64,000 nucleotides of DNA from an uncultured Acidobacteriaceae bacterium. GTDB taxonomy: Bacteria; Acidobacteriota; Terriglobia; Terriglobales; Acidobacteriaceae. The translations under genes and the position numbers were made by a program. The notes under the pieces are model-generated. The model did no database searches. It saw only the letters and a list, made by a program, of their open reading frames with translations, and was not told the DNA's origin. This document shows, in pieces, positions 5,907 through 60,950 of this stretch (position 1 is the stretch's first letter; each line of letters opens with the position of its first letter). The stretch lies in assembly GCA_963705665.1 (NCBI GenBank), contig CAVPKQ010000050.1, positions 3,580-67,579 on the forward strand, written 5' to 3'.

Positions 5907-5918
5907 GAACTTCTTCCT

Positions 5919-8910: not shown

Positions 8911-9935
8911 TTTTCTGCTCCTTCGTAGCTGTGGATGCGGGCGGCGGTGCTCGACCGTTCGGTGAGCCTCGGCGAGAGCAGCCTGATCTCGGGATGGGTC
9001 TCCCCGTTGAGCTGGCGCATCGCCATGTCGACCGCGGTGCGGCCGACCTCGTCGGCCGGGATGGCGACCGAGGTCAGCGGAATCGACTGGTTCGTGGCCA
9101 TGTCCTGCGGGCAGACCGCGACCACCGAGATGTCCTGCGGCACCCGCACTCCGCGCTGACGCAGATCGGAGAGCAGCGCGGGCAGGACCGCCTCGTTGTG
9201 CACGACCAGACCGGTGGTGCCGGGTTGCGTGCGCAGCACGTCGTCGAGGCAGCCGCGAGTGGCCTCGTAGGAGGGGGCGCAGGGGCGCGCGATCGCGTGC
9301 ATGTCGCGTTCGGCCGCGGTGGCGCTGAAACCGCGCAGGAATCGGCCCGCGTAACTGGTGCCGCGCTCGTAGACGGCGGGGGAGGGGCCGATCAACGCGA
9401 TCTCGGTGTGCCCGAGATCGCTCAGGTGGCTCACGCAGACCGCGCCCGCGGCGGCGAAGTCCAGGTCGACGCAGGTCAGTCCGCGCGGGTGATCCGGGAC
9501 GCCGATCAACACGACGGGCCGCTCCAGCGACAGCAGCACCGGCACCCTCGGCTCGGCCGCTTCGACGTCCATCACGATGATCGCGTCCGCCATCGACGAG
9601 CCCGCGACCCTGCGCAGCCCGTCCGGCCCCTCGTCCTTGGTCAGCAGCAGGAGGTCGTGGTCGTAGGTACGGGCCGTGGTCACCGCCGCGGTCACGAACT
9701 GCATCACCACCGGCACGTTCTGGTCCGCGCGCAACGGCACGACGAGCGCGAGCACGTTCGACCGGTTGCCGGCCAGGGCACGGGCGCCCGCATGCGGGCG
9801 GTAGCCGAGCTTGCGGATGCTCTGCTCGACACGGTGCCGGGTCGACGCCGAGATCGATCGCTTCCCGGACAGCACATAGGACACGGTGCTGGGTGACACT
9901 CCCGCGTCGCCCGCGACATCAGCGATCGTCGCCAC
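8907..9935 (-). CDS. LacI-family transcriptional regulator, first gene of the sugar operon
   Basis: N-terminal HTH MATIADVAGDAGVSPSTVSYVLSGKRSISASTRHRVEQSIRKLGYRP followed by a periplasmic-binding-fold sugar sensor domain. A GAGGAGG RBS lies upstream of the ATG. Confidence 0.9.
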   Translation of the reverse strand: MATIADVAGDAGVSPSTVSYVLSGKRSISASTRHRVEQSIRKLGYRPHAGARALAGNRSNVLALVVPLRADQNVPVVMQFVTAAVTTARTYDHDLLLLTKDEGPDGLRRVAGSSMADAIIVMDVEAAEPRVPVLLSLERPVVLIGVPDHPRGLTCVDLDFAAAGAVCVSHLSDLGHTEIALIGPSPAVYERGTSYAGRFLRGFSATAAERDMHAIARPCAPSYEATRGCLDDVLRTQPGTTGLVVHNEAVLPALLSDLRQRGVRVPQDISVVAVCPQDMATNQSIPLTSVAIPADEVGRTAVDMAMRQLNGETHPEIRLLSPRLTERSSTAARIHSYEGAEK

Positions 9936-35450: not shown

Positions 35451-38400
35451 CTAGAAGACATACTTCAGCGCAATTTGCATAATACGAGGGTCGTTCGAGG
35501 TTAGAACGACGCCGAAATTCGGCGAAGTGAAAGTACCGCTCGGGTTGGCGAAGGTTGGATGATTCAGCGCATTGAACGCCTCCACACGCAGCTCGAGATA
35601 TTGAGGTTTATCGAAGGCCTGAAAGGGGAAATTTCGGAATACCGATAGATCCGCATCATAGCGCCCCGGCCCTTGGAGCGAGTCGCGCCTGGAATTTCCA
35701 TAAGTGCCCGGGGTGTTTGCGCTAAACGCCTTGGTATTGAACCATGTTTTCAGCGTTGGGTGCGCCAGGTTGGGATTTCCCTTCACGTTAGGCCTATCGA
35801 AGCCAACGCCGGTCAACGACGCGTCCGTCCCGGTGGAGGGAGTGAACCACAGACCGGTGTGCGCGGTTACGATCGCGCCCAACTGCCAGTCGGCAAGCAG
35901 CCGCCAAGCCCAATTTCCCGTAAAGTGAGGCGTACCGGCGACTAGCGACGTATTGAAGATCTGGCGCTGATCCGTCACGCAGTTTCCCCGGTCGCCTGCG
36001 CGATCATAAGGGTTTTGATATGAATTTGTAATCTCCGATATGATTGCGCCGTCACTGAGGCAGTGCGACCAGGTGTAGTTGATGAGCAGGCTGAGGTTCC
36101 TCGTCAAACGGTGGTTCAGAGTGGCAAGCATGGCGTGATAAGACGAATTGCCGCCGTCGTCGACCAGGATAATTGAGCTGAAGGCGCTTCCCGCCTGAGG
36201 GTTGATCCGGGCCAGAACGCGCCTGCTATTCGTATTCGCAACTGTGGAGCAGTTCGTTTTGCCGCATACGCCGGGAATATAGACCGCCGGATCCTGCTGG
36301 GTCTGGAACCAGAGATGCGTTCCCTTATTGCCTACATAGTTGAGAGAGAACATCCAGTTCGAGCCTCACCTGCTGCTGCAGGCTCAGGTTCCATTGCTGC
36401 AAGTAAGAGGAGCGGATATGCAGCGGAAGGTTTGCATATTGACCCTCTGAGGCAAAACTCGCATTTGCCGTCGGAGGGATGGGCAAGGGGAACGGATTGC
36501 CACCCGGATAGTCGAGATAAGGATTGCCAAATCCGCCGGAGGGATTATTGAGCGTGATCGCGCTTGCCCAAGGCGGCCCAAAGCCGAAGCGATCGAAGTA
36601 TTGCTGCGGTGGCAGGTCATAGAGTATCCCGTACCCGGCGCGCACGATGGTTTCCGCATTTCCGTGTGCATCCCAGACTACGCCGGCTCGGGGAGCGAGA
36701 TTGACGAATCGCTTGCTTGTGCCCGCGCGGGGAAAGCCTGCATCGCCTGGGAAGGAAAGTCCGGGCGCCGCGTTTTGAAAGACCTGGCTCTTTGTCCCGG
36801 CAATAAAGGACGGCAAATCGAAATGCGTTGCCCGCTTCTGCGTCTCGACTTCCGGAAGATAGGGCTCCCACCGCAGACCGAGGTTGACACTGAGGCGAGG
36901 GCTGAATCGTATCTTGTCGGAGCCATACAGCCCGAGATAATTTTGCACGTAGTCGAGCAAGGTCAGGTTTCCCTGGATGAACGAGCTGGGCAGACCTAAT
37001 AACAGATCGGTCAGCGCATAGCCTGTGGCTTGCCCATTAAAGCTAAAGCTCGCATCTTGTTGAGTCGAAGTCTGGTAGCTCGTAGTACGCCGGATCCACT
37101 CACCGCCGAAAGCAATCTGATGACGCCCTTTGACCAGATCGACATCGTCGGCAAATTGCCTGCTGCCGCTATAGACATGCGCATGAGAACAGGTTCCACA
37201 GAAAGTATTAAAGAAACCGGTGACGCCTATTTGCGGAAAATTGCCGGGGGAATCCGCCACATTGAGGCCGATATCCTGAATGGTAGGCAGCCCGGACGCG
37301 GGACCGCGGTTAACGTGTTCGCGGATCCATGTGAAATGAAAAGCATTGATAGCGGCCGGCGCCAGAGTGTAGGAATCCCCAAGGACCAGCGACTGAACGG
37401 TATCGTTGACTCCGGGATTCTGCGTCAGCAATAGATCGTTGTTGTTATAGACCGCGGGATTGCTGTCATTGGTGTAGAAATAGCGCCCGAAGAGCGAATG
37501 GCGCTGGGACTGAGTCCAATCGATCCGACCGATGTATTGGTTCTCGTTGGAGTTATTGGTGATTTTATAAAGTATCTTGCCGCAGGGATCGCTACTCGAT
37601 GGAATATATTTCAGCAGATTGAGCGCCTGTGGGCTGAATCTGGATACCGGTATTTGCTTATTCGGAAATGCCTGGTTGGTCGTGGGATCGTTGATGGTGT
37701 TCGGCACCGTGCCGCACCCGCTGAAATCCCCCTGAAGTTCCCGGGCGGTGGGAACAAACGAAGTTGTGGTCGGCGGCGCGGTATGGATGACGGTCCCTTG
37801 GTAGCCGCCAAAGAAGAAAAGCCGATTGCGCAGAATGGGTCCCCCAAGCGTGCCCCCGTATTGGTTCCGCTTCAGTTGATCCACACTGTGTGCAAAGTAG
37901 GGAATAGCGTTTACGGCTCCGTTGCGCAGAAATTCAAAAAGGTCTCCGTGAAATCCATTCGTGCCCGATTTGGTCACGATGTTGACAACTCCGCCGGCGC
38001 GGCCGCCATAACTGGCCGGGATGGCGTTTGTCTGCACGCTGAACTCTTGCAAGGCATCGGGAAACGGGATGGGGAGGTTGATGGCGCCGAAGGCATCATT
38101 GTGATCTCCGCCATCCATGAGGTAGACCGTGCCGTTGGCCTGGCCTCCGGCGATCGCGATGGTGGTTGAGGAAGGATAATTTTTGCTGCTGGCGAGGTCG
38201 CTGGGAGGAGCCGTCACCGCGGCGCCGGAGAGCAGGATAAGCTGCGTCGGCTGCCTGCCATTCAGAGGCAGATCCACGACGCTCTGATCGTTGATCACCT
38301 GGGAGATGCCGGTGGTCTGCGTCTCCGCCATAACGGCATTGCCATGGACCTCGACCTGCTGTGACACCGCGCCCACCTGGAGCACTACATTGATGGTCGG

Positions 38401-38730
38401 GTTGGTGTTGACCTGCAAAACGACACCGTCCTGCCGCGAGGTCTTAAAGCCTGGAGCGCTTACCTCGATCCGGTAAGGACCGATAGGCAGGTTGGTAAGC
38501 ACATAGGAGCCGTCGGAGCTGCTGACAGTGGACCGGGTAAATCCGGTATCCGTCTGCAACGCCTTGATCTGAGCGTTGGGAACGGCCGCGCCAGAAGCGT
38601 CCTGAATCGTTCCAGCAATCCGATCGACAACGGTTGCCTGCGCATGGGATCGGAGGGGCGGGGAGAGGAACAGAACAAGGGCGGCGGCAGCGAGCGCCCG
38701 GCTCAACTCGCTAATCCAATGGATTCGCAT
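35451..38730 (-). pseudogene. TonB-dependent receptor with an N-terminal carboxypeptidase-regulatory-like domain, interrupted by a 1-nt frameshift
   Basis: A GGAGGA RBS precedes the ATG at 38730 and a signal peptide (MRIHWISELSRALAAAALVLFLSPPLRSHAQ). ORF 36325..38790 ends ...SSYLQQWNLSLQQQV then RLELDV.... The barrel continues in another frame as GSNWMFSLNYVGNKGTHLW...ALKYVF (ORF 35451..36353). Deleting the single A at 36366 (minus strand) joins the frames. Confidence 0.85.
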
Positions 38731-38871
38731 TTCAGTGTCCTCCAAGGAATAATTCGGGCGCTCACATACACGGAGCAGCTCGGCGGCCAATTTTAGGCGC
38801 GGTGAAATCGCGCTCCATGACTCGATAGCTGCCTAATGTACACTACGGTTTTTACCGCTGTCAATAAAAAC

Positions 38872-42749: not shown

Positions 42750-42861
42750 GTCGAAAGCTATTCTGCAAAACCTGGGTGCCCCATATCTGGCGCGCTCTTT
42801 GCGCCAGATGTGGGAAACCGCAGATCTCTCCACTCCGCTGCGCTTCGGTCGAGATGACAAA
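42750..42861 (+). repeat. Composite repeat element (families C+B), third full copy
   Basis: gtcgaaagctattctgcaaaacctgggtgccccatatctggcgcgctctttgcgccagatgtgggaaaccgcagatctctccactccgctgcgcttcggtcgagatgacaaa is about 93% identical to 34887-35000. Confidence 0.85.
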
Positions 42862-42873
42862 TTAGCTGGGGCG

Positions 42874-49021: not shown

Positions 49022-50509
49022 TTACGTCGTGCGTGATGATCCAGGAAGCAGCACTAGTTCTGCCGCCACTGACTGAAACGCTTCCAGCGCAGCCTGTAGA
49101 TTCTCGACGATCTCGGCGGCGATCACATCAGGAGACGGAAGGCTGTCGATGTCATCGAGGCTATCGTCTTTCAGCCAGGTGATGTCCATATTCAGCTTGT
49201 CGCGCTTCAGCAGGTCATCGACCGCGAATCGCTTGAAACGCTCGGCCTTGTCTTCTTTCCGCTTGCTGCGATCTGCGGTCGAATAGCACTTCACGAAGTC
49301 GTCGAGGTCTGAGGACTTGAGCGTGTTCTTCCGCAGCGTGAAATGCATGTTCGTGCGGAAGTCATAAATCCAGACCGCTTTCGAGTTGGGTTTTCCATCG
49401 GCACGGGGCGCGTGTTTGTCGAAGAACAGTACATTCGCCTTCACGCCGGGTTTGTAGAAGATGCCAGTAGGCAACCGCATCATCGTGTGGAAGTCGAACT
49501 GCTTTAGCAGGCGCTCGCGGATTCCCTCACCGGCGCTGCCCGCCTCAAAAAGCACATTGTCCGGGAGCACGACGCCGGCGCGGCCGCCCGTCTCCATGAT
49601 GGTCATGATGTGCTGCAGGAAGTTGAGCTGCTTGTTCGACGTGGTGAACTTGAAATCCTGGCGCTCGTAATCCTCGCGCTCCGTATCGATCTCGCCGTCA
49701 TCGCCAACCACGCGATAGCTCGACTTCTTGCCAAAGGGCGGATTGGTCAGGATCACGTTGTAGCGGCCGCCAGGATCGGTTGCCAAGGCATCGCCCTGGC
49801 TGATGGGGCTCTCGCCGTTGCCGATGCCGTGTAGGTAGAGGTTCATCCCGCACAGGCGTACCACCTCGTCCACAATGTCCACGCCGGTCAGGGACTTTTC
49901 GCGCAGTTTTCTCTGCAAGCTGCGATCCTGTGACTGGCCCTTCATGTGGTCATAAGCAGCGAGCAGGAACCCGCCCGTGCCGCAGGATGGATCGTGGACT
50001 GTCTCACCGATCTTTGGGTTGACCACTTTGACCATTGCTTGAATTAGAGGGCGCGGCGTGAAGTACTGGCCTGCGCCAGACTTCACTTCGGCGGCGTTCC
50101 TTTCGAGCAAGCCCTCGTAGATCGCGCCTTTCACGTCTACGCCGATGCCGATCCATGTCTCATCGTGGATGAGCGAGACGATGCGCTTCAGCTTGGCCGG
50201 GTCGGTCAGCTTGTTCTGCGCCTTGCGGAAGATGGTGCCGATCAGGCCTTTTTCATGAGCGAGATTCTCGAGCGTGTGCCGGTACTGGAGTTCGAGCGGG
50301 TCGCCAGAGAGCGGAGCGAGCTTCTCCCAGCGCCATTTGGCCGGAATGATCGACGGTTCGCCCAGAAGCTCGGAGCGCTCCTGGTCCATCTTCAGGAAGA
50401 GCAGAAAAGTGATCTGCTCCACGTAATCACCGTAGCTGATGCCCTGATCGCGCAGCACGTGCGCATAGTTCCAAACCTTCTGGACGAGATTGTTCGATTC
50501 GTTGCTCAT
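49022..50509 (-). CDS. hsdM: Type I restriction-modification system DNA methyltransferase subunit
   Basis: HsdM N-terminal domain (VWNYAHVLRDQGISYGDYVEQITFLLFLKM), SAM motif DPSCGTGGFL, and catalytic motif LTNPPFG. Confidence 0.93.
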   Translation of the reverse strand: MSNESNNLVQKVWNYAHVLRDQGISYGDYVEQITFLLFLKMDQERSELLGEPSIIPAKWRWEKLAPLSGDPLELQYRHTLENLAHEKGLIGTIFRKAQNKLTDPAKLKRIVSLIHDETWIGIGVDVKGAIYEGLLERNAAEVKSGAGQYFTPRPLIQAMVKVVNPKIGETVHDPSCGTGGFLLAAYDHMKGQSQDRSLQRKLREKSLTGVDIVDEVVRLCGMNLYLHGIGNGESPISQGDALATDPGGRYNVILTNPPFGKKSSYRVVGDDGEIDTEREDYERQDFKFTTSNKQLNFLQHIMTIMETGGRAGVVLPDNVLFEAGSAGEGIRERLLKQFDFHTMMRLPTGIFYKPGVKANVLFFDKHAPRADGKPNSKAVWIYDFRTNMHFTLRKNTLKSSDLDDFVKCYSTADRSKRKEDKAERFKRFAVDDLLKRDKLNMDITWLKDDSLDDIDSLPSPDVIAAEIVENLQAALEAFQSVAAELVLLPGSSRTT

Positions 50510-52276
50510 GATGTGACTTTCTTTCTGCGGCCTTTGGCGGGAGCAGTGTGTTTCAGAGTCTTTGCGCGCTCAGCGGCGATGCGTCCGAGGAGGACCGAGG
50601 CGGGTTCGTCAGTCGGGTCCTGGAGAACAAGCTCACCGGAAAATGCCGCGCTCAAGATTTCTAGTTTAAGTCCGTGAGTTCGCTTTGACTCGCGAGCAGC
50701 GCCATCCTCCAGTACTTTCGTCTGCATCTCGATAGAAGCCATTTCCTCAACGATCCTCGTTTGTTCGTCGAACGGTGCCAAGGGTATGGCATGATGGGAG
50801 AGTTTCCCGGCACTGAGATGGTTAATTCCTACGCCGCTAGCAAGTACTTTGAACCAGCCAAGCTCTTGCGATGCTTTGAAACAACGGCTCCAACATGAGG
50901 ACCAACGGATAGCGCTTCTGGCCACTCAATCGCTTTTTCAAGACATAGGTTGCAACCGTCCACATCTGTGAAATCGGCACCATGGTTTTATCGCAAGATG
51001 CACATCCCGGACGATCCTCTCTATTACGAGAAGTTCTATTTCACGCCCGGCGACCTGGGCTTTCGCGCCTTCGACACGCAGGCCGGGCGCATCGGCGCAT
51101 CAAGAATAGGTATTCACTTGAAATCACGCATGGTTGGACTCTGATAACGGTGTTCTGAAAACAATACAAACCTTCTACTTTTGGCCACACCACCGGGCGG
51201 CCGACATGTCTGGGGCTTCCGGAAGCCTCTGTTAGCAATACATCTCCTGCATGAAGTCGAAAAGTGAGTTTCTCTACCTCGTCGAAATCCATCTGGTACA
51301 CGTTATTAAAATCAATTCCTGCCAATGTGATATTCGCGGCACGAATGTACTTCTGTGGAGAGATTCCCTTCTGCTTTTCTGGGGATCGTTGGCGCCCTAA
51401 TTGGACCAATCCGACTTGTTCGACTGATACCCACACCCATCCTTCCGGGAGTACGGGGAGGTTGGTGGTATCGGGGGTGACGGGCTCTTTGTATTTCTTC
51501 TTCCAGAGGTCGTTGGTGGGCTTTTGGCCCTTGGCCTTCATTTTGGCGAGCTCGGATTTTTCCCAGGCTTCGCAGCGGGTTTTGAGGATGCGTGAGAGCA
51601 GGGCTTCGCCGGATTCCAGCTTGCTTTTGTGCTTCTCGCGCCACTCCCGCGTGAGTTCGCCGGTCACAGCCGCCTTGAGCACCGACTGACGGTACCGCTC
51701 CACCAGTTTCTGCACCCACTCCAGCGCCCGCTCGCCCTCATCAATCCTGCTCAAGAACTCGGCAATCTTGGAGACTATGCGATCTTGCTCTGTCGTGGGT
51801 GCCAACTGAACCTCATATGCGTCGAGTCTGTCGAAATCTACGCTACTAACCGTTGTTCCATCTTTCGAGCACGTATGAAGAATTTCTCGTCCACGGGATT
51901 GCAGGAAATACGCAATATAGAGCGGGTTGATGCCTCCGGCCGGAGTCCAGGCCTTTAGATCCTGGTTGACAGCGACTCGAATGGTGTTCACTGCAACTGG
52001 AAATGTGTGCTGCAGAATGCCGGAGCGGGTAACCATCAGAACCGAACGCTCCGGGATTAGACTCGTTGATGAATTCGTAACTGCCTCTTCGGTTATCTGG
52101 TCTTGTGCAGAATCAATAATCAAGCGCTTCATGTCCTTTGGCGAGACCCAATGGACGGTTCCATTTTGCCAATAACGTGGCTCTGATTTAGCTGGGGTTC
52201 CTCCGCCTCTCCATGTGCCGATCTTTCCGAGTGAAGATGCAGACCAACCCTTGGGCATACTTGTGATTTCCTTCAC
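50506..52276 (-). pseudogene. hsdS: Type I R-M specificity subunit, disrupted by a foreign insert plus a frameshift
   Basis: The GTG overlaps the hsdR stop (GTGA). TRD1, the central helix (EQDRIVSKIAEFLSRIDEGERALEWVQKLVERYRQSVLKAAVTGELT) and TRD2 are intact down to ...SSEYLFLM at ~51101. A non-hsdS insert follows. The tail (50506-~50960) reads ...RYPLVLMLEPLF / FKASQELGWFKVLASGVGINHLSAGKLSHHAIPLAPFDEQTRIVEEM and needs a 1-nt correction at 50879-50881. Its TGA overlaps the hsdM ATG. Confidence 0.8.
50986..51100 (+). pseudogene. ~115-nt fragment of a carbon-nitrogen hydrolase (N-carbamoylputrescine amidase-like) gene embedded in hsdS
   Basis: It translates as FYRKMHIPDDPLYYEKFYFTPGDLGFRAFDTQAGRIGA, a highly conserved internal block of that family. 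The flanks have no family similarity. Confidence 0.6.
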
Positions 52277-55026
52277 GCTGCCAACGCCTCGCAGAGTTCA
52301 TCCAGCATTCGATTCAGCTCGGTGCCGAAAAGCCTGCGCGCAGCGACAACCCCACCCCACTCACTAAAGGGCTGGTCCCGCATGAGATCCGCCGACGCGA
52401 TCTCGACATTTGCGGCGAGGTAATCCTTGATGGCTTTGAGCCAGTTCATCTGTTCCTCATTGAACGTGCGGCCTGCCTTGAACTGGCGGCCGATCCAAAG
52501 ATTGAAGCGCTGCTCCACACGAGCGGCATAGGGCTCCAGGGTGTCAGTCTGTCCCGTGGCAAAGCGAACTAGAGAGATGATATCGGTTAGCACCTTGTCG
52601 CTGGGCGCTCCGCGGACGAGCGAGGATTCAAGCCGCTTATAAGCCTGCCAGACATCGGCCGTGGTCAGGTGATAGGGCGGGTCGGTGAGCCGCTGCGCCA
52701 ACTCGCGAATGCTGGCATATGTTAGGCGGCGTTTTGGATAGGGCTGCCTATAGAGAATTTGCAGAGACAGCAGTTCGTTCTTGTGCGTCTCGATGAACTC
52801 GCGGAAGCTGGTCGTGCGCTGTTCGGCCTGGCGCAGGTCATAGCCGGCGCTCGTGACCTGATCCACCGTCCCTTCGTCGATGACGATATCCGACTTCTTC
52901 TTGATGACCTTGAGCAGGTTACGGAGGTTGGCATCGTCAAGGGGACCGCAGGCGCGATCCTTCAGCTCTTCCTCGACTGCATGGATCTCCGCTTCTGTGG
53001 CTGTTTCAGGATCGCCATGACGGCGGGCAATCTCAGCATTGATCACGTCGGGACTGATGGATTCAAGCAGGTTTTGCGCGAGCGTTTTGAGTGTCTGCCC
53101 GGGTGCAGTTTCGCTGATGCGCTGGCGGTCCTCATCCTCCACCTTGCGATCGAGAGCCGCAAGACGGCCGGCCAGGCTGGAGATGGCGTCGAAGTCCCTG
53201 CGGCCCTGCGCGATCTGGTCAATCAACTGATCGAAGGAGGCGCCGCGCTTGCGCTCGAGCGGCTGCGAGATGGTCTTTTTGCCCTCCGTGACGCCGACTG
53301 CGTCGACTAACACGAAGCGCGTCTTGGTCGGTGCGTCGGGCGTTACTTGCCTGAGGTCGGCATCTTTCAAGGTGCGCACCCCGCGACCCTTCATCTGCTC
53401 GTAGTAGCCCTCGGATTTCACGTCGCGCATGAAGATGAGGCACTCGACAGGCTTGATGTCCGTGCCGGTGGCGATCATGTCCACGGTAACGGCGATGCGC
53501 GGGAACGGATCGACGCGGAAGGCGGCAATCAGCTCCTTGGGCTTCTCGTTGGTCTGATAGGTGATCTTCTTGGCGAAGTCGTTGCCCTGGCCGAAGACCT
53601 CGCGCACGGCATGGACGATCTCTTCGGCATGGTTATCGTCTTTGGCAAAGATGAGTGTCTTGGGCACCCATTCCCCCGTGCGGTCCGGAAAGAGCTCGGT
53701 AAAAAGCTTGTCTCTGAAGCATCGCAGGACGGCGCGGATCTGGTTGGGGACGGTGACGTCGTTATCGAGCTGCCTTTGGTTGTAGGGCAGGTCGCTGTCG
53801 AGCTGCCTATAGCGGATGGCGCGGGTGCGGCGGTCGCGCACGGGGACCTGATACTCGGAATCGACGACCCCACCCTGTTCCGTGACGCGAGTCCTGATCC
53901 GGTAGACTTCAAATCCAACGTTGACTCCATCGACGATCGACTGCTCGTAGGGATACTCGGCGACAAGGTTCTGATGGAAAAAACCGAGGGTGTGCATGGA
54001 GGGGGTAGCGGTGAGGCCGATCAGGTGCGCGTCAAAATATTCCAGCACCTGGCGCCAGAGGCCATAGATGGAACGGTGGCACTCGTCGGTGACGATGAAG
54101 TCGAAGGTCTCGATGGGAATGGCCGGATTGTAGGAGATGGGGGGAATTTCGCCCTCGTCGTTGGCCCATGTCTCAAACGCAGAAGTCTCTTCCGCGGATT
54201 CGTCCAGTTCTTCTCCGCGCAGCATGGCGTAGAGTCGCTGGATTGTAGTGATGAGGACTTTGGCATCAGGGTCAATCCGGTTGGAGTGCAGATGCTGCAC
54301 GATGTAGGTCTTGTCGAACTTGCGGCCTGAGCCGGGCGGATCGTAGTTCTGGTACTCCTTAAGCGTCTGATCGCCGAGATTGTTGCGGTCGACCAGGAAG
54401 AGAATGCGACGTGCTCCGGAGAACTTAAGAAGCCTCCAGCTGAAGGTGCAGGCGGTGAAGGTCTTGCCGGCTCCGGTGGCCATCTGGATGAGCGCACGGG
54501 GCTGATCCTTTACGAGTGATGCCTCCAATCCACGAACGGCATCGATCTGGCAGTCGCGGAGGCCGGTCGTATCAAGCGGCGGCATCTGCTGCAGACGGCC
54601 ACGCAAGGTGTCGACCTCTTTGAGCCATGCATGAAGTGTCTTCGGCTGATGGAAGGCGAAGACGCGGCGCGAGCGGGACTGCGGATCGCGAGTGTCGCGG
54701 AAGAACGTCTCTTCTCCTGTGGATTCGTAATGGAAGATGAGACGATCGGCCCAACGGGCGAGGTGTCGAGGCAGTTCTTGCATGTACTTGGCTGATTGCT
54801 CAGCAACACCGCTCAGCGTGACCCCAGCCTTCTTTGCCTCAATGACGCCGGCCGCCTTCCCGCCCACGAAGAGCAGGTAATCACAGGGACCGTTGGGGAG
54901 CGAAAACTCACGGACGGCAACGCCTTCACCGGCGTTGCGATTGAATTCTGCGTTGTTCTGCAGGACCCAGCCGGCAGCTTCGAGCAGGGCGTCGATCTGT
55001 TGTCGTGCAAGTTCTTCAGGGGTCAT
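52273..55026 (-). CDS. hsdR: Type I restriction enzyme endonuclease/helicase subunit (EcoEI-like C-terminal domain)
   Basis: N-terminal nuclease region (ARQQIDALLEAAGWVLQ), helicase motifs MATGAGKT, VTDECHRS and GLTATP, and a long helical C-terminal domain. 917 aa, uninterrupted. Confidence 0.93.
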   Translation of the reverse strand: MTPEELARQQIDALLEAAGWVLQNNAEFNRNAGEGVAVREFSLPNGPCDYLLFVGGKAAGVIEAKKAGVTLSGVAEQSAKYMQELPRHLARWADRLIFHYESTGEETFFRDTRDPQSRSRRVFAFHQPKTLHAWLKEVDTLRGRLQQMPPLDTTGLRDCQIDAVRGLEASLVKDQPRALIQMATGAGKTFTACTFSWRLLKFSGARRILFLVDRNNLGDQTLKEYQNYDPPGSGRKFDKTYIVQHLHSNRIDPDAKVLITTIQRLYAMLRGEELDESAEETSAFETWANDEGEIPPISYNPAIPIETFDFIVTDECHRSIYGLWRQVLEYFDAHLIGLTATPSMHTLGFFHQNLVAEYPYEQSIVDGVNVGFEVYRIRTRVTEQGGVVDSEYQVPVRDRRTRAIRYRQLDSDLPYNQRQLDNDVTVPNQIRAVLRCFRDKLFTELFPDRTGEWVPKTLIFAKDDNHAEEIVHAVREVFGQGNDFAKKITYQTNEKPKELIAAFRVDPFPRIAVTVDMIATGTDIKPVECLIFMRDVKSEGYYEQMKGRGVRTLKDADLRQVTPDAPTKTRFVLVDAVGVTEGKKTISQPLERKRGASFDQLIDQIAQGRRDFDAISSLAGRLAALDRKVEDEDRQRISETAPGQTLKTLAQNLLESISPDVINAEIARRHGDPETATEAEIHAVEEELKDRACGPLDDANLRNLLKVIKKKSDIVIDEGTVDQVTSAGYDLRQAEQRTTSFREFIETHKNELLSLQILYRQPYPKRRLTYASIRELAQRLTDPPYHLTTADVWQAYKRLESSLVRGAPSDKVLTDIISLVRFATGQTDTLEPYAARVEQRFNLWIGRQFKAGRTFNEEQMNWLKAIKDYLAANVEIASADLMRDQPFSEWGGVVAARRLFGTELNRMLDELCEALAA

Positions 55027-55069
55027 TTCACCACCTGAGTTCTGGAACCGCGTCGCTGCATATTCGTGC

Positions 55070-56245
55070 TCATTTGAGGGGTTCCGTTCCTTCGTTCAGA
55101 ATGGCTAAATACTCCTCGTAGACAAACAGCCTGTGCCGCTCCCGGCCTGTTACTTCATGCAGAATTCCCAAGTCGATCATATGCATCATCGATTTCGTGA
55201 CCGTCGGCGCGGAGATGCCGATCTTGGCGGCGGTCGTGGGAATAGCGACAATTGGATTTCGCTGCATGTGCTGGAATACACGTAGGACAGAGGCCGCTGG
55301 CCGCCCTAAGCCTTCGATCTTCTTCTGATCCTGTTCGAAGAGGGCCAGGATGCGGCGAGCTGCGTTTGCAGCCTGGTCGGCTGTATCCCGAATTCCAATC
55401 AAAAAGAAGTCGAGCCAGGCTTCCCAGTCGCCTCTGGTCCGCACACGATCGAGGAGTTCGTAATATGCAGCACGATTGCTCTTGAAGTACAGGCTCAGAT
55501 AGAGAATTGGTTCCCTGAGCGTGCCTTGGGCGCAAAGGAGAAACGTGATCAGGAGCCGGCCCAGCCTGCCGTTGCCGTCAAGAAATGGGTGGATCGTCTC
55601 AAACTGGACGTGGATGAGGCCAGCTTTGACCAGCAGGGGAAGTTTTGACTGCTCCTCATGGAAGAAGAGTTCGAGTTGCCCAAGGCATTCCTGAACCAGC
55701 TCCGGCGGCGGGGGAACGAACACTGCGTTCCCTGGGCGGCTGCCGCCGATCCAGTTCTGGCTATGTCGGAATTCTCCGGGCTGCTTGCCGCTTCCCCGAC
55801 CTTTGGAGAGGAGGATTTCATGAATTTCACGGATGAGCCGCAGGGATAGGGGGAATCCGGCCCGCAGTCGTTCCAGGCCGTGGTCCATCGCAGCAACGTA
55901 GTTCGAGACCTCCTGCACGTCCTCGATCGGCGCCCCGGGGACCTCTTCGTTTTCGAAAAGGAGCAGGTCGGACAGAGAGGACAGCGTGCCCTCAATCTGT
56001 GACGACAGCACAGCTTCCTTGCGAACGTAGGTGTAAAGCAGGAGGGAAAGGTCGGGGAGCAGAGAAGCCAGCCCGTCGAGCCGCCCCACCGCCTGATTCG
56101 CCTGCTCCAGAAGGAGCTGCAACCTGTCGAGCTGTACGGGTGGAATTGGGGGCAACGAAGACGGGACAAACGCGCGAACCGTCTCGCCTTCGAATACTTT
56201 GGCAACGTATCGGCCGAGGCGAGATTTGGCCGGCAATTGGGGCAC
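55070..56245 (-). CDS. Fic-family protein (AMPylase/adenylyltransferase-type) with a C-terminal winged-helix
   Basis: The Fic motif HPFLDGNGRLGRLL fits HxFx(D/E)GNGRxxR. The N-terminus GRYVAKVFEGETVRAFVPSSLPPIPPV is typical of this family. The start is taken as the GTG at 56245, which has a GAAAGG RBS; the ORF-track TTG at 56314 is also possible. Confidence 0.85.
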   Translation of the reverse strand: MPQLPAKSRLGRYVAKVFEGETVRAFVPSSLPPIPPVQLDRLQLLLEQANQAVGRLDGLASLLPDLSLLLYTYVRKEAVLSSQIEGTLSSLSDLLLFENEEVPGAPIEDVQEVSNYVAAMDHGLERLRAGFPLSLRLIREIHEILLSKGRGSGKQPGEFRHSQNWIGGSRPGNAVFVPPPPELVQECLGQLELFFHEEQSKLPLLVKAGLIHVQFETIHPFLDGNGRLGRLLITFLLCAQGTLREPILYLSLYFKSNRAAYYELLDRVRTRGDWEAWLDFFLIGIRDTADQAANAARRILALFEQDQKKIEGLGRPAASVLRVFQHMQRNPIVAIPTTAAKIGISAPTVTKSMMHMIDLGILHEVTGRERHRLFVYEEYLAILNEGTEPLK

Positions 56246-56708
56246 GAGAACCTTTCGTTGCAGTTTCAGTAACGAAAGGATAGCGTTATTTCCTTTAGTA
56301 AGGCAAACTGGCAACTAAGTTTGCTCGCCTGGCAGCGAACATCGATCCCGATTTCCTCACCCAACGGTCTATGAGGTTGCCAGTCCGAAAGGGGAAGACC
56401 GGACTCTAATAGGTGACGGAAAGAGCCGCCGCAAATGGTTACTTAATAGGCCTGCGCCAAAATCGAAGCTACTAGTCGGAATGTTGCGGGCTGAGATCGA
56501 AGAATCACCTTCCGAGATGATTCTTTCGGCGCCCAGAAGGAGAGATAAAGTCCCTTTCGATTTCGCGCTGTTTGGCATCCGCTGCGGGCGGGCGCTTTAG
56601 TCCCCCACTGATCTTGGATGTTGTAGTCGCAACGGACCGCCTGTATCGTCCTAGCCAGCCACCCACCTGTGAAACCGCTTCAACGTCATTCAGCGGACGA
56701 TGATAGAC

Positions 56709-56776: not shown

Positions 56777-56866
56777 TGGCGGAGGGAGAGGGATTCGAAC
56801 CCCCGTAGCCCTTGCGGGCTAAGCGGTTTTCAAGACCGCCTGTTTCAACCGCTCACACATCCCTCC
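56777..56866 (-). tRNA. tRNA-Ser (anticodon UGA), CCA encoded
   Basis: The minus strand reads GGAGGGATGTGTGAGCGGTTGAAACAGGCGGTCTTGAAAACCGCTTAGCCCGCAAGGGCTACGGGGGTTCGAATCCCTCTCCCTCCGCCA. The 7-bp acceptor is GGAGGGA/TCCCTCC, the anticodon loop is CTTGAAA, there is a long variable arm, and the T-loop is TTCGAAT. Confidence 0.9.
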
Positions 56867-57084
56867 GCGTGAGGATTATCAATAGTTTACCAGTAGCTGG
56901 ACGCTGCCAACCTGGAGCGAAGAGCTGCTCCAGGTTAAATCGCTCCGGTTTTTCCACCGCTTTGCGCTTGTGCTCCGGGGATGGATCGGATGGATCCACG
57001 TACCGCATGGTGGTTGCGATGGCCGCTTGCGTCACATCCTTCAATGAGGGCGATCCAGCTCGTCCTTGCAGCCGGATTGTATTC

Positions 57085-57498
57085 CTAAGCGGCTTGGAGC
57101 TTTTGGAAGAGGGCCTGGAGATCCATCTGATTCCAGCCATCCATGATCTGGTTACCCTGGACAACGATGAAGGACGACCCGACCAGTACGCCCCTCTTGC
57201 CACTTGCGGGGAAGCCGAGATGATTCCCACGATGGGTCATTACGGCTCGCCACCGGATCGCGACACGGTCGCCTTCGGCAATCATGTCCTGTATTTCGAT
57301 TTCCAGATCCGGGAAGGCGCCGCAAAAGGTGCGATGGACAGCCTTGAAGGCTTCGGGCCCCTCGAGCACAGAGTCCGCGTCCGGAAAGCCGTGGGCCTTT
57401 CCTTGAGGGTGAAACATTTCATCGATTGCTGCTTCGTTCCTTTGGTTCCAGACCCGATCGAACCAACGCGCTGCGACAAGCTTATTTGCTTCGGACAT
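57085..57498 (-). CDS. SnoaL-like / ester-cyclase-like small protein
   Basis: An AGAGG RBS precedes MSEANKLVAARWFDRVWNQRNEAAIDEMFHPQ...GDRVAIRWRAVMTHRGNHLGFPASGK, the typical SnoaL/NTF2-like polyketide cyclase fold pattern. Confidence 0.7.
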   Translation of the reverse strand: MSEANKLVAARWFDRVWNQRNEAAIDEMFHPQGKAHGFPDADSVLEGPEAFKAVHRTFCGAFPDLEIEIQDMIAEGDRVAIRWRAVMTHRGNHLGFPASGKRGVLVGSSFIVVQGNQIMDGWNQMDLQALFQKLQAA

Positions 57499-57568
57499 AC
57501 GGACCTCTGATGTGCCGTGAAGCTTAGCACGCAGCCGATGAGATGAACAGGTATCAGTAAGGCGGGTA

Positions 57569-57599
57569 TGGCGGGAGGGGGATTCGAACCCCCGTAGCC
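57569..57599 (-). other. Degenerate 3' fragment of a tRNA-Ser-like gene (T-arm plus acceptor 3' strand)
   Basis: tggcgggagggggattcgaacccccgtagcc compares with tggcggagggagagggattcgaacccccgtagcc at 56777-56810. Similarity ends at the variable arm, and no matching 5' acceptor strand lies nearby. Confidence 0.55.
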
Positions 57600-57671
57600 T
57601 CCCTCGCGCAAGTGTTATCAAGCTCGACATTCAATCGGAATTGAGCAAGCCATTCGAAATCCCCGACGTTT

Positions 57672-58160
57672 TCAGGAAATCTTGAAGTTGAGCTCGCGGT
57701 AGAACACAAAGTCATTGATACAGCGAATGCTGAAATTCTTGCAGACATCGGGAACCCTGCGATTCGCTCTTTGTTTAGCAGGCGCAGATACCTCTTTTGT
57801 CACCACGGTGGTTCCATTGATGTCAGCCAACGCATAGGCGATCAGAAATGGGTCTTGGCCGATCTCTTCGATTTCGCTGTCGTTCAAGTCGGGTGCGTAA
57901 CCTTGCACGAGTACGGTATTCAAATTCGTTGGATCGATCCGCTGATCGAAACGCATAACTTTGGAGATGATGGCATCTGTCAGCCAGTCGTGCAGCGGGC
58001 CAGTTGAAACCGCAATTTCGCCGTAGATTTCATATGGAACCTTAGCGATGCCGTCCTCTCCCAATCCAGCAAGCCAGGCCCAAAATTGGGGGATGCGATC
58101 AATAGGATAGTAATCTTCGTGAGCGCGGATCAGCACGTTGGCATCGAGCAGGTAGAGCAC
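57672..58160 (-). CDS. DUF4411-like PIN-fold nuclease
   Basis: VLYLLDANVLIRAHEDYYPIDRIPQFWAWL...DPFLIAYALADINGTTVVTKE. The GTG at 58160 is one nt after the upstream gene's TAA; the alternative start at 58196 overlaps that gene. Confidence 0.65.
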   Translation of the reverse strand: MLYLLDANVLIRAHEDYYPIDRIPQFWAWLAGLGEDGIAKVPYEIYGEIAVSTGPLHDWLTDAIISKVMRFDQRIDPTNLNTVLVQGYAPDLNDSEIEEIGQDPFLIAYALADINGTTVVTKEVSAPAKQRANRRVPDVCKNFSIRCINDFVFYRELNFKIS

Positions 58161-58161
58161 C

Positions 58162-59418
58162 TTAGCGCAGGGCCTCGCGGCCGAGGGACGCTGCACTCTT
58201 CTCGTAACCGCGGAGAAGCGGTTCGACCGAGGATGGACTCACGCCGAGTACTTTTGCGGCCTTGGTATGCGTTAGGCGGCTCTCCCGGACAGTTCGAAGA
58301 ACCACGTTGATCAGAGCATCGCCTAGCCTGCTTTGCTTTACCACGTAGTAGCTCGGACCGCCGTCCCTCATCTGATTCGCAGCTTTGGCGCTGGCCTTAT
58401 ACGAGGCCCAGCGAGCGCTATAGGAGGCGCTGAGAGTTCTATAGATCGACGCAGATATCCATCCAAGCCGGCGGAGCCGTAACGCGACGAGCGGTTCGCT
58501 AACTAGCCAGCGTTTGGCCATTTCTTCAATGTATCTACTTGCCGATGGTTGATCCCCTCGAGCGAGCTCCGGTGGTTTTTGTAGGGCAAAGCTTTTGGGA
58601 AGGAGCACTAGACCGGCGACATCATTGCAGAAGCTCTCAATTCGTCCTTCGGCTGAGTTTTCTTTCACGGATTCCGGGGCTCCACTCACACCGCTTTGGC
58701 CTAGGTAGATATGCGCCAGTTCATGGATGAGGGTGAAGGACCGTGCGGTTCTCGCGTCGTGATCGTTGATGACGATAAATGGAGCAAACGAGTCCGCAAG
58801 AGCAAAGCCGCGAAAGACGTCTTCGCTTAGCGCAGAATGATGCGATCCCAGGTCGCCGGCGAGCAGCACGAAGACCCCAAGTCTTTCTGTGGCCGTCCTA
58901 AGCTGCCTGAAGAATTCGTCAGCCGTACCGCCCCAATCTCCGCGTCGGGCGGGTAGCTGGAGTGCGGATGTAATGCGCTGGGCAACTGTTTCCGCCCCGT
59001 CGGCGAGGGACGAGGAAGATACAAAAGATCTATTCTGCGCCTCATCCAGGTCTTCGAGCATGCCACGGACCATTTCCTGACGCGCTTTGATGTCCCGGAC
59101 CATGGCATCTAGTAGTGCATTCTCTCGGAGCGAAACTTCCGATCCCGTAGATCGAAAATCCTCCCCCCGGGGGCCCCTGCTGGGCGGAGCTGCCATGTAG
59201 AAGGCAAGAAGCGGCCGACGATAGGTTTTCGCAATTTTCATGAGCTGGGCCCGGGAAGGGCGGCGCGCCCCTTTCTCGAGATCAAGGAGCTTCTGCTCGC
59301 TGTTCTCGTTCTTGGAGTCGCCCAGGGCGAGGCGCCTTGCCGCATCCTGGACATCGAGTCCGGCTGACTCTCTGGCCCAGACAAGTAGTGCGGGATTTAT
59401 CTGTTCTCCTGGCTGCAT
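58162..59418 (-). CDS. XRE-type HTH fused to an ImmA/IrrE-family zinc metallopeptidase (COG2856-like)
   Basis: N-terminal HTH region (LLVWARESAGLDVQDAARRLAL...RPSRAQLMKIAKTYRRPLLAFY) and the HEXXH motif in SFTLIHELAHIYLG. 418 aa. Confidence 0.8.
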   Translation of the reverse strand: MQPGEQINPALLVWARESAGLDVQDAARRLALGDSKNENSEQKLLDLEKGARRPSRAQLMKIAKTYRRPLLAFYMAAPPSRGPRGEDFRSTGSEVSLRENALLDAMVRDIKARQEMVRGMLEDLDEAQNRSFVSSSSLADGAETVAQRITSALQLPARRGDWGGTADEFFRQLRTATERLGVFVLLAGDLGSHHSALSEDVFRGFALADSFAPFIVINDHDARTARSFTLIHELAHIYLGQSGVSGAPESVKENSAEGRIESFCNDVAGLVLLPKSFALQKPPELARGDQPSASRYIEEMAKRWLVSEPLVALRLRRLGWISASIYRTLSASYSARWASYKASAKAANQMRDGGPSYYVVKQSRLGDALINVVLRTVRESRLTHTKAAKVLGVSPSSVEPLLRGYEKSAASLGREALR

Positions 59419-59708
59419 GGCATGTGCCTATCGCCTACGAGCGCGCCGAGACGATCTTTCTAAAGTATATGAGACTGCTCAGCCTCGGATATCGAGCCAG
59501 ATGGGCTATGGACTTCGTCGGATTCCCGAGTTCACCCTTTATAGAAGATCGCCCAAAGGGCATCGAGACTGTAGGGACTTTTGTAGGGACTGCTGCGACA
59601 GATTGCCACACTTCAATACATCCCGGCACAACGTGCTGCATGAGTACAACTAATTGAAAAGAAGTGGGTTGCAGGATATCTGCTTCGGAATCAATTGTTT
59701 AGAAAAAG

Positions 59709-59809
59709 GGCGGTTTTAGATTTTCAAGACCGCCTGTTTCAACCGCTCACACATCCCTCCGCGTGAGGATTATCAATAGTTTACCAGTAGCTGGAAGCTG
59801 CCAACCTGG
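59709..59809 (-). repeat. Duplicate of the tRNA-Ser 5' half (acceptor 5' strand to anticodon arm) plus 49 nt of its upstream flank
   Basis: 59709-59809 matches 56823-56915 with one mismatch plus a 7-nt insertion (agatttt) in the anticodon loop. The variable arm, T-arm and 3' acceptor are absent. Confidence 0.8.
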
Positions 59810-59849
59810 GTCAAAAAGCTGCGGCCACTCCCGGCAGATGAGGGGCTGG

Positions 59850-60900
59850 TTACTTTTGCAGGCCGGTCTGATCAGCCTGCTCCGTAATGGCATGGACGGC
59901 GGAAGACATCCTGGCAGGATCTCGCTGCTTAAGAAGCTGCCCAAGCTGCTCGTATTGATCGCTCGCGAGATAGTCCACTCCATCGCTGGCCGCGGCCCGC
60001 CAACGTTTCTCAGCTGCGGGCAGGCTCCCGAAGTTATATGCGCGGAACCATCCGTGGCAACTGCGACTCCTGCATGGTAGCGCCGTCGAGCGTGTAGAAC
60101 CGGATCCAGAGATGGTTGGCATGCGCATGCTCCACCAGAGAGCGGAGGCGAAGCTCATCGGAACGAGTCCAGTCGCCGGCATGATTCTGGCCGCCAGCCT
60201 CGACCACATTCCAAGGGTTATTCCACCAGCGGCGGTAGTTGCTCGCGTGCTCAGTCTCGAGGACGTTGGCCGGCGCCATGGGAGCGGCAGTGTTCGTGTG
60301 CACGGCGCCAAATACCAAGAGGCGCCCACCTACGGGGACCTTGTCGTAGAAGACAGCCTGCTGCGCATCCGATGATCCGGTCAGCACCAGTATCGGGCGG
60401 ACTGCCAGAGGCTCCATTTGAGCCGGATCGGCCGTCTTCGGCGCAGTTGTTATCCAATCGCGATACTTGGTGAGCAGAGCCCAGACAGCCTCAAGATGCG
60501 CAGGCTCCTCCGTCTTAAAGTCGAGGTTGAGCGTGATGAGCGGCCATTGGCTCCGATCGCCGCTCTCGAGCGCGCGTTCTACTATCGGGCGCACGCGATC
60601 GAAGGAGTAATGCTCCATTGTGGGCTCGTGGCCCGAATAAGGAACTCCGTGGGCGACGATCGACCAGGAGCGCCCGGTCTTCGGATCGGTATACCAGGCG
60701 AGATCCTGTTCGACCGCGAGCGGCGTGCCGGCGGACAGAGCGCGGTCGATGCGGTCGCTCCACCACTCAAAATACGGATAGCAATTGTGCGCGTCCAGAA
60801 TGGTGCGCGTGCCGGGCGCGATGGCCGAGGTTTTCTGAGCCTGCGACCTGGGCAAAACCAGCAGCGTGAGCACAGCGAAACCGGGCAGGAGGGCTCTCAA
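59850..60900 (-). pseudogene. Secreted PI-PLC-like (Ca-dependent PLC-C1-like) phosphodiesterase, frameshifted near the C-terminus
   Basis: A TTG start precedes the signal peptide MRALLPGFAVLTLLVLPRSQAQ. The family-like block is ILDAHNCYPYFEWWSDRIDRALSAGTPLAVEQDLAWY. ORF 60034..60900 ends FYTLDGATMQESQLPRMVPRI*. The conserved tail GWFRAYNFGSLPAAEKRWRAAASDGVDYLASDQYEQL lies in another frame (ORF 59850..60329). Confidence 0.55.
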
Positions 60901-60950
60901 TCCGTTCCTCTCAATCCGTTCCTCTCAATCCGTTCCTCTCAATCCGTTCC
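60895..60950. repeat. 14-bp perfect tandem repeat x4 (tctcaatccgttcc) covering the start codon and RBS of the PLC-like gene
   Basis: There are four exact units. On the gene strand each unit reads GGAACGGATTGAGA, which supplies an AGAGGAA Shine-Dalgarno-like element plus a TTG. Only the last TTG opens the long ORF. Confidence 0.9.

Follow-up and report, generated by a model that had tools for sequence, protein, structure and literature searches.

A probable composite scar of reverse-orientation integrative elements at the tRNA-Ser(UGA) gene of an uncultured Acidobacteriaceae bacterium

A duplicated 5′ half at the tRNA-Ser(UGA) gene

A 64-kb stretch of contig CAVPKQ010000050.1 from an uncultured Acidobacteriaceae bacterium (the window) was analyzed around its tRNA-Ser(UGA) gene, where a 2.8-kb cassette lies between the intact gene and a displaced copy of its 5′ half. 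An earlier reading of this DNA, the original prediction, had proposed that one small integrase-less element inserted at the anticodon loop. ARAGORN called a single tRNA in the whole window, tRNA-Ser(UGA), and the Rfam tRNA model placed its match at 56780–56866(−), so that the two programs agree on the intact gene that had been predicted (Table 1).

A repeat finder detected an ungapped direct repeat (D1) of 102 nt and 95% identity, copy A at 56827–56928 and copy B at 59721–59822, 2.9 kb apart, each consisting of 62 nt of upstream flank (F_A and F_B, respectively) and tRNA positions 1–40, up to the anticodon loop CTTGAAAA. When the sequence was read directly, the two copies were identical over 88 nt, that is, 40 nt of tRNA and 48 nt of flank, and all five mismatches fell in the distal 14 nt of the repeat. 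Further, a 37-nt segment (56831–56867, the 5′ half and one flank base) occurred exactly twice in the window and in none of 100 shuffles. The predicted duplication of the 5′ half with its flank is a real repeat, and only its extent had to be revised, to the lengths and identity given here. At 59721–59760 neither ARAGORN nor Rfam called a tRNA. Attachment (att)-type direct repeats containing a tRNA segment are thereby present, with the tRNA intact at one end only, and the guanine-plus-cytosine content is 0.49–0.51 within the cassette vs. 0.57–0.62 outside.

The tRNA homology of copy B ceases after CTTGAAAA, where element DNA starts. A 7-nt insertion in the anticodon loop, noticed earlier, proved to be an artefact of an alignment forced across this junction; those 7 nt are the first of the element arm, and they mark the attL junction and are no evidence for a 7-bp crossover. 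At the same position, other members of the junction family described below carry TCTAAAAGTGGG, TCAAAAAACCGT or CCTAAAGCAGGG, and their anticodon stem is not restored. A GGCGGT...ACCGCC hairpin with a T-run at the B junction was considered as a terminator or as proof of a 7-bp overlap and rejected, its fold being no better than those of shuffles (z = −1.4) and the hairpin not being conserved among the other family members.

Table 1. Features of the tRNA-Ser(UGA) locus in window coordinates.
Feature	Position	Strand	Support
Intact tRNA-Ser(UGA)	56777..56866	−	ARAGORN; Rfam RF00005, 53.7 bits
Flank F_A, 62 nt upstream of the intact tRNA, repeated at 59761–59822	56867..56928	−	D1
Tyrosine integrase C-terminal pseudogene remnant, ~55 codons	56880..57047	−	tblastn
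SnoaL-like gene, 137 amino acids, intact	57085..57498	−	PF07366, 1.8e-26, positions 3–125/126
frag3, internally deleted tRNA-Ser pseudogene	57570..57622	−	D5, 93%; exact 21-mer; flank match
DUF4411 PIN-like gene, 162 amino acids	57672..58160	−	PF14367, 1.8e-32, positions 1–158/159
Fused HTH(XRE)-ImmA/IrrE (M78/DUF955) zinc-peptidase gene, 418 amino acids	58162..59418	−	PF06114, 2.1e-10; HTH_31, 5.7e-7
Conserved left arm (P′-arm-like), ~150 nt	59568..59720	−	74–81% identity to arms in L098, L110 and L081
Displaced tRNA-Ser 5′ half B, positions 1–40, end CTTGAAAA; attL side	59721..59760	−	D1 repeat; exact 37-mer
Flank F_B, copy of F_A with 5 mismatches, all distal	59761..59822	−	D1

An integrase remnant runs into the flank of the intact tRNA

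The stretches of other genomes used for comparison are denoted by L numbers. When the integrase of L348 was compared with the whole window by tblastn, one significant match was obtained, aligning residues 426–479 to 57047–56880 with an E value of 7.5e-10 and 49% identity (aligned rows TLKELMGHSSITTTMRYVHPT---PEHKRKAIDKLEQFNIEQMFAQ and SLKDVT-QAAIATTMRYVDPSDPSPEHKRKAVEKPERFNLEQLFAP), and the L315 integrase matched the same remnant with an E value of 2.3e-8. The remnant keeps the R-Y catalytic-tyrosine region (TTMRYV), reads towards the intact tRNA and abuts its flank, and it is damaged by the loss of the LGHS motif and a 3-codon insertion. Neither the L185 integrase (BLASTP) nor Pfam gave a significant match to it, the only significant ones being those against the L348/L315 lineage. 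No intact integrase of any of the three lineages described below was found in the 64-kb window by tblastn and lineage comparisons. The integrase had earlier been declared absent, which holds for an intact gene, while a remnant lies directly beside the tRNA.

Since these last integrase codons continue into the sequence upstream of the intact tRNA, copies A and B have in common a flank that consists of the 3′ coding end of an integrase gene followed by the short spacer before the tRNA. F_A overlaps the final codons of the remnant and carries TAAACT and GATAAT −10-like boxes, the former conserved across the right-end flanks of relatives. From necessity and from this conserved box, F is a putative promoter of the intact tRNA. 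The second copy, F_B, starts 27 nt past the stop of a frameshifted PLC-like gene. A metagenome scan with the F flank and the tRNA start returned 0 matches. The original prediction had the element carry a promoter flank with the 5′ half and leave the resident 5′ half beside the PLC-like gene. An upstream flank is indeed carried with the 5′ half and a 5′ half is displaced there, while the flank is mostly an integrase 3′ coding end. Since what had been called promoter flank is largely of this kind, F_B beside the PLC-like gene most likely marks where an even earlier element had its right end, and not virgin chromosome.

The 3′ fragment inside the cassette

Between the two copies of D1, 57570–57599 matches 56781–56810, the T-arm/acceptor end of the intact gene, at 93% (repeat D5), including an exact 21-mer (57579–57599) with only two occurrences. 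Compared with the end of the intact gene, this piece has one T-to-C change and a 3-nt deletion, and keeps GCCA. A degenerate 3′ fragment had been noticed here before and is real, while the locus (frag3) also retains ~16 nt of upstream flank and the first 6–7 nt of the tRNA (57600–57622). The order of frag3 is a right-end-type flank, TTGATAACACTTGCGC, then GAGGGA (tRNA positions 2–7), then the last ~31 nt of the tRNA, comprising the end of the variable arm, the T arm, the acceptor 3′ strand and GCCA. TTGATAACACTTGCGC-GAGGGA is in register with the right-end flank and tRNA positions 1–7 of L315, L091, L121 and L289 (TTGACAACACTCACGCGGAGGGA), and the score of the flank matches was reached by 0–4 of 2000 shuffles. 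As an in-register right-end flank and tRNA start precede the 3′ piece, frag3 represents a whole tRNA-Ser copy with its own element-type flank, which later lost positions ~8–58. It is likely the attR tRNA copy of a distal element whose left arm lies at 59720.

In two independent scars, metagenome contig L375 and the window at 57600–57606, a tRNA copy breaks right after position 7 (GGAGGGA), which is either a coincidence or a deletion hot spot.

The junction and the element arm recur in other genomes

The left arm extends from the anticodon-loop junction to a tandem repeat, AGTCCCTACA-AA-AGTCCCTACA at 59570–59591, which is unique within the window; the element repeat at the arm end is AGTCCCTACAAAAGTCCCTACAG. 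The exact 40-nt tRNA-Ser(UGA) 5′ half was used to scan one genome per species, and 116 scorable matches were obtained, 108 in complete tRNA genes and 8 cut short. Three of the eight cut-short copies (L081, L098 and L110) break at the same position as copy B and continue for ~150 nt with a sequence 74–81% identical to 59720–59568. A metagenome scan with the arm core added 7 further examples, several of them following tRNA-Ser 5′ halves in varied states of decay, and the same arm follows a cut-short tRNA-Arg(CCT) in L361. Rfam found nothing in the conserved arm at a permissive threshold. The cargo behind the arm differs, being an arsenic-resistance operon in L098, a HipA-like kinase and an HTH gene followed by a putative CRISPR array (judged from repeated peptides in the translations) in L110, and glycoside hydrolases in L373. 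A fixed tRNA insertion point, a conserved end and a variable interior together are the signature of integrative elements.

The 5.4-kb cassette of L098 has no integrase, and its genes, read from translations, encode ACR3, ArsR, an ArsM-like and two ArsC-like proteins and an oxidoreductase. It is bracketed by 191-nt repeats of 98% identity (575–765 and 6000–6190), each made up of the tRNA-Ser 5′ half and 149 nt of native flank that takes in ~12 codons from the start of the adjacent chromosomal gene; L104 appears to be the corresponding empty site. L098 suggests the existence of integrase-less derivatives that capture host flank.

In L093, L111, L123 and L170, tRNA-Ser(UGA) 5′ halves are likewise cut in the anticodon loop, with other conserved sequences beyond the cut: L093 and L111 share one post-junction sequence, L093 also has a remnant of the L090-type integrase upstream, and L170 has a second, different tRNA-Ser-like 5′ half 60 nt further on. 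Several unrelated element families thus appear to use the tRNA-Ser(UGA) site in reversed orientation. In L372, a metagenome contig of 1608 nt, a cut-short 5′ half joined to the arm is preceded, ~100 nt upstream, by a complete tRNA-Ser(UGA), a layout that simple reverse-orientation integration does not predict.

Complete elements of the same integrase family

A genome scan for the arm repeat GTCCCTACAAAAGTCCCTAC yielded 93 stretches, nearly all assigned to Acidobacteriota by their record titles. Most of them show the classical layout, in which the integrase converges on a tRNA 3′ end: the repeat is found on the strand opposite to tRNA-Asn(GTT) or tRNA-Lys(CTT), ~60 nt away from the 3′ end of that gene. 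Eight of the 93 have it ~50 nt upstream of a tRNA 5′ end on the same strand, at Ser(UGA) in five cases and at Arg(CCT), Arg(ACG) and Met in the others. The repeat doubles as the end of an open reading frame, encoding the terminal ESLQKSL and stop of a 359–404-amino-acid protein, and the integrases of L315 and L348 match PF00589 (Phage_integrase) at 1.9e-22 and 8.7e-25, respectively.

In complete relatives of 8–18 kb, the integrase gene ends ~53 nt upstream of the regenerated tRNA and is co-oriented with it. Both element ends were found on single contigs in L110 to L315 (~18 kb) and L081 to L348 (~14.5 kb), in the order cut-short 5′ half, arm, cargo, integrase, repeat, flank and intact tRNA. 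In L361 to L360, which make up a complete 8.2-kb element at tRNA-Arg(CCT), the stranded 5′ half leads into the arm, and the integrase precedes the intact gene. At position 3 the native 5′ half differs from the element-borne one, and the flanks upstream of the two are unrelated, as expected for site-specific integration of foreign DNA. Displaced 5′ part, element-borne 5′ part with flank, and integrase upstream and co-oriented were all found in the window and in L315, L348 and L360/L361. Beside the attachment site, the window has a tyrosine integrase only in the form of the remnant, and the relatives have a full-length PF00589 protein at the same position. The predicted insertion, at the anticodon loop, of an element carrying the 5′ half and upstream flank is thus borne out by the same junction and arm in independent genomes and by an integrase beside the regenerated tRNA in complete relatives.

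Other reversed integrase lineages were found at tRNA-Ser(UGA), one in L185 and L163 (PF00589 at 1.2e-32 for L185) and another in L090, and L164 to L185 is an element of ~37 kb. Tandem accretion was observed in L289, where an older integrase remnant with repeat, flank and 5′ half is followed ~39 kb downstream by the L163 integrase and the intact tRNA. As candidate integrase-binding (arm-type) sites, the tandem AGTCCCTACA is present in the left arm of the window and the same repeat at the other arm of relatives, the right arm of the window being without the full repeat; such a binding role for the repeat is putative.

In the predicted viral sequence L370 (IMG/VR UViG_3300048598_000270, 4991–6176), an integrase ~27% identical to those of L348 and L315 has the same arm repeat at its end, and no tRNA was found within the stretch examined.

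Relatives of the locus with and without the cassette

Starting 27 nt before the tRNA, the metagenome-assembled genome (MAG) MFD06092.bin.2.40 (L200) is 96.7% identical to the window across the tRNA, the Fic gene and part of the type I restriction-modification (R-M) genes; further upstream it has unrelated DNA with only a degenerate copy of the repeat. In the MAG MFD09603.bin.2.275 (L184), a TonB-receptor fragment is fused to the last codons of the PLC-like gene, and after another 43 nt the sequence is ~89% identical to the integrase remnant and F_A of the window and runs into the intact tRNA, with no cassette. Presence/absence polymorphism was therefore seen in both, as a cassette-free allele in L184 and as differing upstream DNA in L200, and synteny breaks exactly at the tRNA 5′ side, as expected if elements come and go there. 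The empty-site comparison that had been suggested thus produced a cassette-free relative, though one with an integrase remnant scar; for this exact lineage, no clean empty site without a scar came up. Synteny of the PLC-like gene served to retrieve 80 relatives, and none of the 60 scanned for tRNAs had an adjacent tRNA-Ser(UGA), so that this route led to no empty site.

Proposed mechanism and its alternatives

The locus is read, at a probability of roughly 0.8, as the accretion scar of tyrosine-integrase elements that target the anticodon loop of tRNA-Ser(UGA) in reversed orientation. Judging from the intact relatives, attP would consist of the integrase gene, its ESLQKSL-stop codons coinciding with the repeat AGTCCCTACAAAAGTCCCTACAG, a ~53-nt spacer with TAAACT, tRNA positions 1–40, the anticodon-loop crossover and a ~150-nt arm with the same repeat. 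Integration would join the upstream region and 5′ half of the element to the resident 3′ half, so that the tRNA stays intact, and the resident 5′ half, together with its flank, would be left stranded at the opposite end of the element. For the intact gene at 56777–56866, an element would then have supplied the 5′ part and flank, and the resident gene the 3′ part (attR side).

For the history, the oldest element would have left F_B and 5′ half B as its right-end scar after the end of the PLC-like gene. A second element, its integrase lost, would be represented by the left arm, the HTH-ImmA/DUF4411 genes, the right-end flank remnant and the internally deleted tRNA copy. The most recent one, its integrase truncated, would extend from the SnoaL-like gene through the C-terminal integrase remnant and F_A to the intact tRNA. 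At least two decayed elements probably make up the 2.8-kb cassette. Direct observation covers the junctions and the conserved arm, the remnant of the integrase, the complete relatives and the cassette-free one, and confidence in the general mechanism is high; it is low for the detailed history, in which we infer the order and number of integrations.

Several observations weigh against this reading. F_A and F_B are closer to each other than either is to the F of L184, which is unexpected for independent integrations and would require gene conversion, a further integration by an element of the same type or a step driven by homology. The 5′ boundary of the integrase remnant falls on the same nucleotide in the window and in L184 despite their differing upstream DNA, and the proposed history leaves this unexplained. 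Further, a second integration at the anticodon loop would have cost frag3 its tRNA 3′ end, and frag3 still has it; therefore the later element did not use the anticodon loop of that copy, and the proximal element must have crossed over near the tRNA 3′ end or come by another route. No recognisable left arm follows frag3. Compared by eye with L348, F has a gap of ~45 nt that includes the full arm repeat. Finally, a simple sigma-70 scan, made without acidobacterial promoter rules, found no match in F.

The missing arm bears on the alternative that a single reverse-orientation element integrated once and that frag3 is an older scar carried inside it, as the original prediction had it. Just one left arm lies between the repeats, with none past frag3, and this arm and the integrase remnant come from the same integrase/arm-repeat family, as a single element would have them. 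Such a history nevertheless appears unlikely: frag3 has a right-end-type flank in register with tRNA position 1 and resembles a complete attR copy at a chromosomal tRNA, tandem accretion is directly observed in L289/L163, and F_B, as integrase 3′ coding sequence beside the PLC-like gene, would be left unexplained. Given the right-end-type flank of frag3, two decayed tandem elements are the more likely origin.

The closeness of F_A and F_B would fit a homology-driven insertion, in which an integrase-less circle with the resident flank and 5′ half, formed by aberrant excision as in lambda-dgal, was re-inserted by Campbell-type recombination or by an integrase in trans, duplicating the flank. The two flanks are the same within the 88-nt identity, and L098, with its integrase-less cassette in long repeats that take in the start of the neighbouring gene and with L104 as its empty site, offers a parallel. 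However, a single crossover in F and the 5′ half predicts the integrase remnant upstream of copy B, and it was found upstream of copy A; F is integrase-derived, not host-derived; and the observed structure needs extra deletions. This route is accordingly rated as somewhat less probable still than the single element.

Simple local duplication of the 5′ region of the tRNA, whether tandem or segmental, with no mobile element involved, would give direct repeats around 2.8 kb and agrees with the lack of a working integrase in the window, but it is already contradicted, and very improbable, because the same anticodon-loop break and 150-nt arm occur in unrelated genomes with different cargo and an integrase remnant abuts the tRNA; the arrangement is also absent from the relatives L200 and L184. 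An assembly artefact, that is, a mis-join or expansion at the repeated tRNA sequence, is just as improbable, for although short-read assemblers can be misled by repeats of ~100 nt, there are 5 differences between the copies, the junctions are distinct and biologically coherent, and the same architecture is seen in many independent assemblies, including megabase-scale contigs.

Under the favoured reading of stacked reverse-orientation elements, one wider proposal is offered tentatively, at rather less than even odds. The integrase family marked by the ESLQKSL-stop/AGTCCCTACAAAAGTCCCTAC 3′ end may have flipped its orientation repeatedly, being reversed at Ser(UGA), Arg(CCT), Arg(ACG) and Met vs. 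classical at Asn and Lys, so that the sole promoter of a presumably essential tRNA would come to lie in or just after the integrase 3′ end, and the host would depend on a stub that deletions cannot erase. If true, this dependence would account for the survival of the same remnant and flank, with an identical 5′ boundary, in the window and L184, and for the stacking of scars on the tRNA 5′ side.

Cargo genes and fate of the cassette

The three gene calls of the original prediction, SnoaL-like, DUF4411 and HTH-ImmA/IrrE, were upheld by their Pfam matches (Table 1, the last by Peptidase_M78/IrrE); the genes span nearly the whole of the models and look intact. The SnoaL-like gene is either cargo of the proximal element remnant or a captured gene. 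The HTH-ImmA protein has a HELAH motif, and the DUF4411 gene begins with a GTG start 1 nt after the ImmA stop on the same strand, giving a fused HTH and M78 gene directly upstream of DUF4411 in an operon-like arrangement. PADLOC matched the peptidase only as RmrA/CapP-like (1e-10 to 1e-12) and had no match for DUF4411, and an exact-protein look-up of the ImmA gene product returned no record. Matelska et al. (2017, PMC5499597) predicted that fused HTH-DUF955 with DUF4411 forms a three-component toxin-antitoxin-like system. The gene order of those modules is the same as that of the window pair, which forms surviving cargo here, the toxin-antitoxin function being a prediction and the DUF4411 protein the predicted nuclease/toxin partner.

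Toxin-antitoxin-like cargo may plausibly favour retention and stabilisation of the cassette. The cassette is probably immobile, because no integrase is present in the window, and autonomous excision is unlikely, because the integrase is a stub and the right arm lacks the repeat. Its loss by homologous recombination between the 102-nt repeats is possible.

Neighbouring features of the window

The PLC-like gene (59850–60900(−)) has a frameshift near 60067–60167, its homologues matching 60948–60067 and 60167–59916 in different frames and fixing the real stop at 59850; it is either a pseudogene or affected by a sequencing error. A perfect 14-nt tandem repeat, CTCTCAATCCGTTC, is present in four copies at 60894–60949, at the 5′ end of this gene, separating it from the TonB-dependent receptor gene. 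Directly downstream of the tRNA, 49022–56314(−) is a defence block, made up of a Fic protein of the SoFic type (PADLOC SoFic, 1.8e-119) together with a type I R-M system (HsdR, HsdS and HsdM). L200 shares this block, and an internal deletion there (window 54352 to 50434) joins the N-terminal region of HsdR to HsdM. No repeat of the tRNA 3′ end was found at the far border of the Fic/R-M block.

Farther away, an OMP_b-brl_4/CarboxypepD_reg receptor gene at 35451–38790(−) is split into two overlapping open reading frames covering profile positions 1–545 and 549–838, a probable frameshift. A ~50-nt sequence at 42805–42868 has at least 5 copies, one of them inverted, upstream of the tRNA in L200 (5644, 5957, 6259, 8781 and 8883–8938) and looks like a small dispersed repeat of the lineage.

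Significance and comparison with known systems

The wider interest may lie in one arm-repeat/integrase family that is found in both orientations, and the attP/attB pairs described here could be used for studying orientation choice at a symmetric anticodon-loop site. Island finders and the textbook view presume 3′-end replacement and 3′ fragments, and scars of the present type go unnoticed or are misinterpreted. In Acidobacteriaceae, integrative elements repeatedly use the 5′ side of tRNA-Ser(UGA) as a landing pad, as ~7% of the sampled genomes have a cut-short 5′ copy, and at least three integrase lineages lie directly upstream of this gene. Reversed elements would have to supply the tRNA promoter, so that the expression of a host gene would be handed to mobile DNA. 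For annotation, the 2.8 kb is decayed mobile DNA with a toxin-antitoxin-like pair, beside a SoFic and type I R-M block.

Classical tRNA-integrating prophages and islands with an anticodon-loop crossover are reportedly covered by the Williams classification of 2002. Classical islands share with the window an integrase beside attP, a symmetric anticodon stem-loop crossover, an element-borne tRNA segment that regenerates the gene, and common accretion and decay. They carry the 3′ half and leave a 3′ fragment downstream, whereas the window has a carried 5′ half with its upstream region and a 5′ fragment upstream. The family found at the window locus is specific to Acidobacteriota and has a conserved arm repeat that also encodes the final residues of the integrase, and most members with this arm repeat are themselves classical, at tRNA-Asn and tRNA-Lys.

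Cis-mobilizable elements (CIMEs), known from ICESt-type islands, are integrase-less remnants flanked by att sites. Like the window, they hold cargo between attL/attR-type repeats without a recombinase of their own, and mobilisation in trans by a related integrase is conceivable. Unlike in the CIME setting, no resident cognate integrase was found in the 64-kb window, and its right arm is without the full repeat.

In actinobacteriophage tRNA-dependent lysogeny (Guerrero-Bustamante and Hatfull, 2024, PMC10865867), integration destroys the host tRNA, and a separate tRNA gene of the phage complements the loss. Those phages likewise break the usual rule of 3′ end replacement, while the window tRNA is rebuilt at the junction. 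Recombination with the 5′-distal part of a tRNA gene is called 'considerably less frequent' than with the 3′-distal part in PMC6563490, where Zhao and Williams (2002, J Bacteriol 184:859) and several archaeal cases are cited. The orientation had been predicted to be unusual, and it is indeed rare, while it had already been described there. The reverse-orientation elements cited there likewise recombine with the 5′-distal tRNA part, carry it and strand a resident 5′ fragment, and the copy in the window differs from them in being decayed and composite. The window locus is a decayed, composite case of this documented but rare 5′-distal kind.

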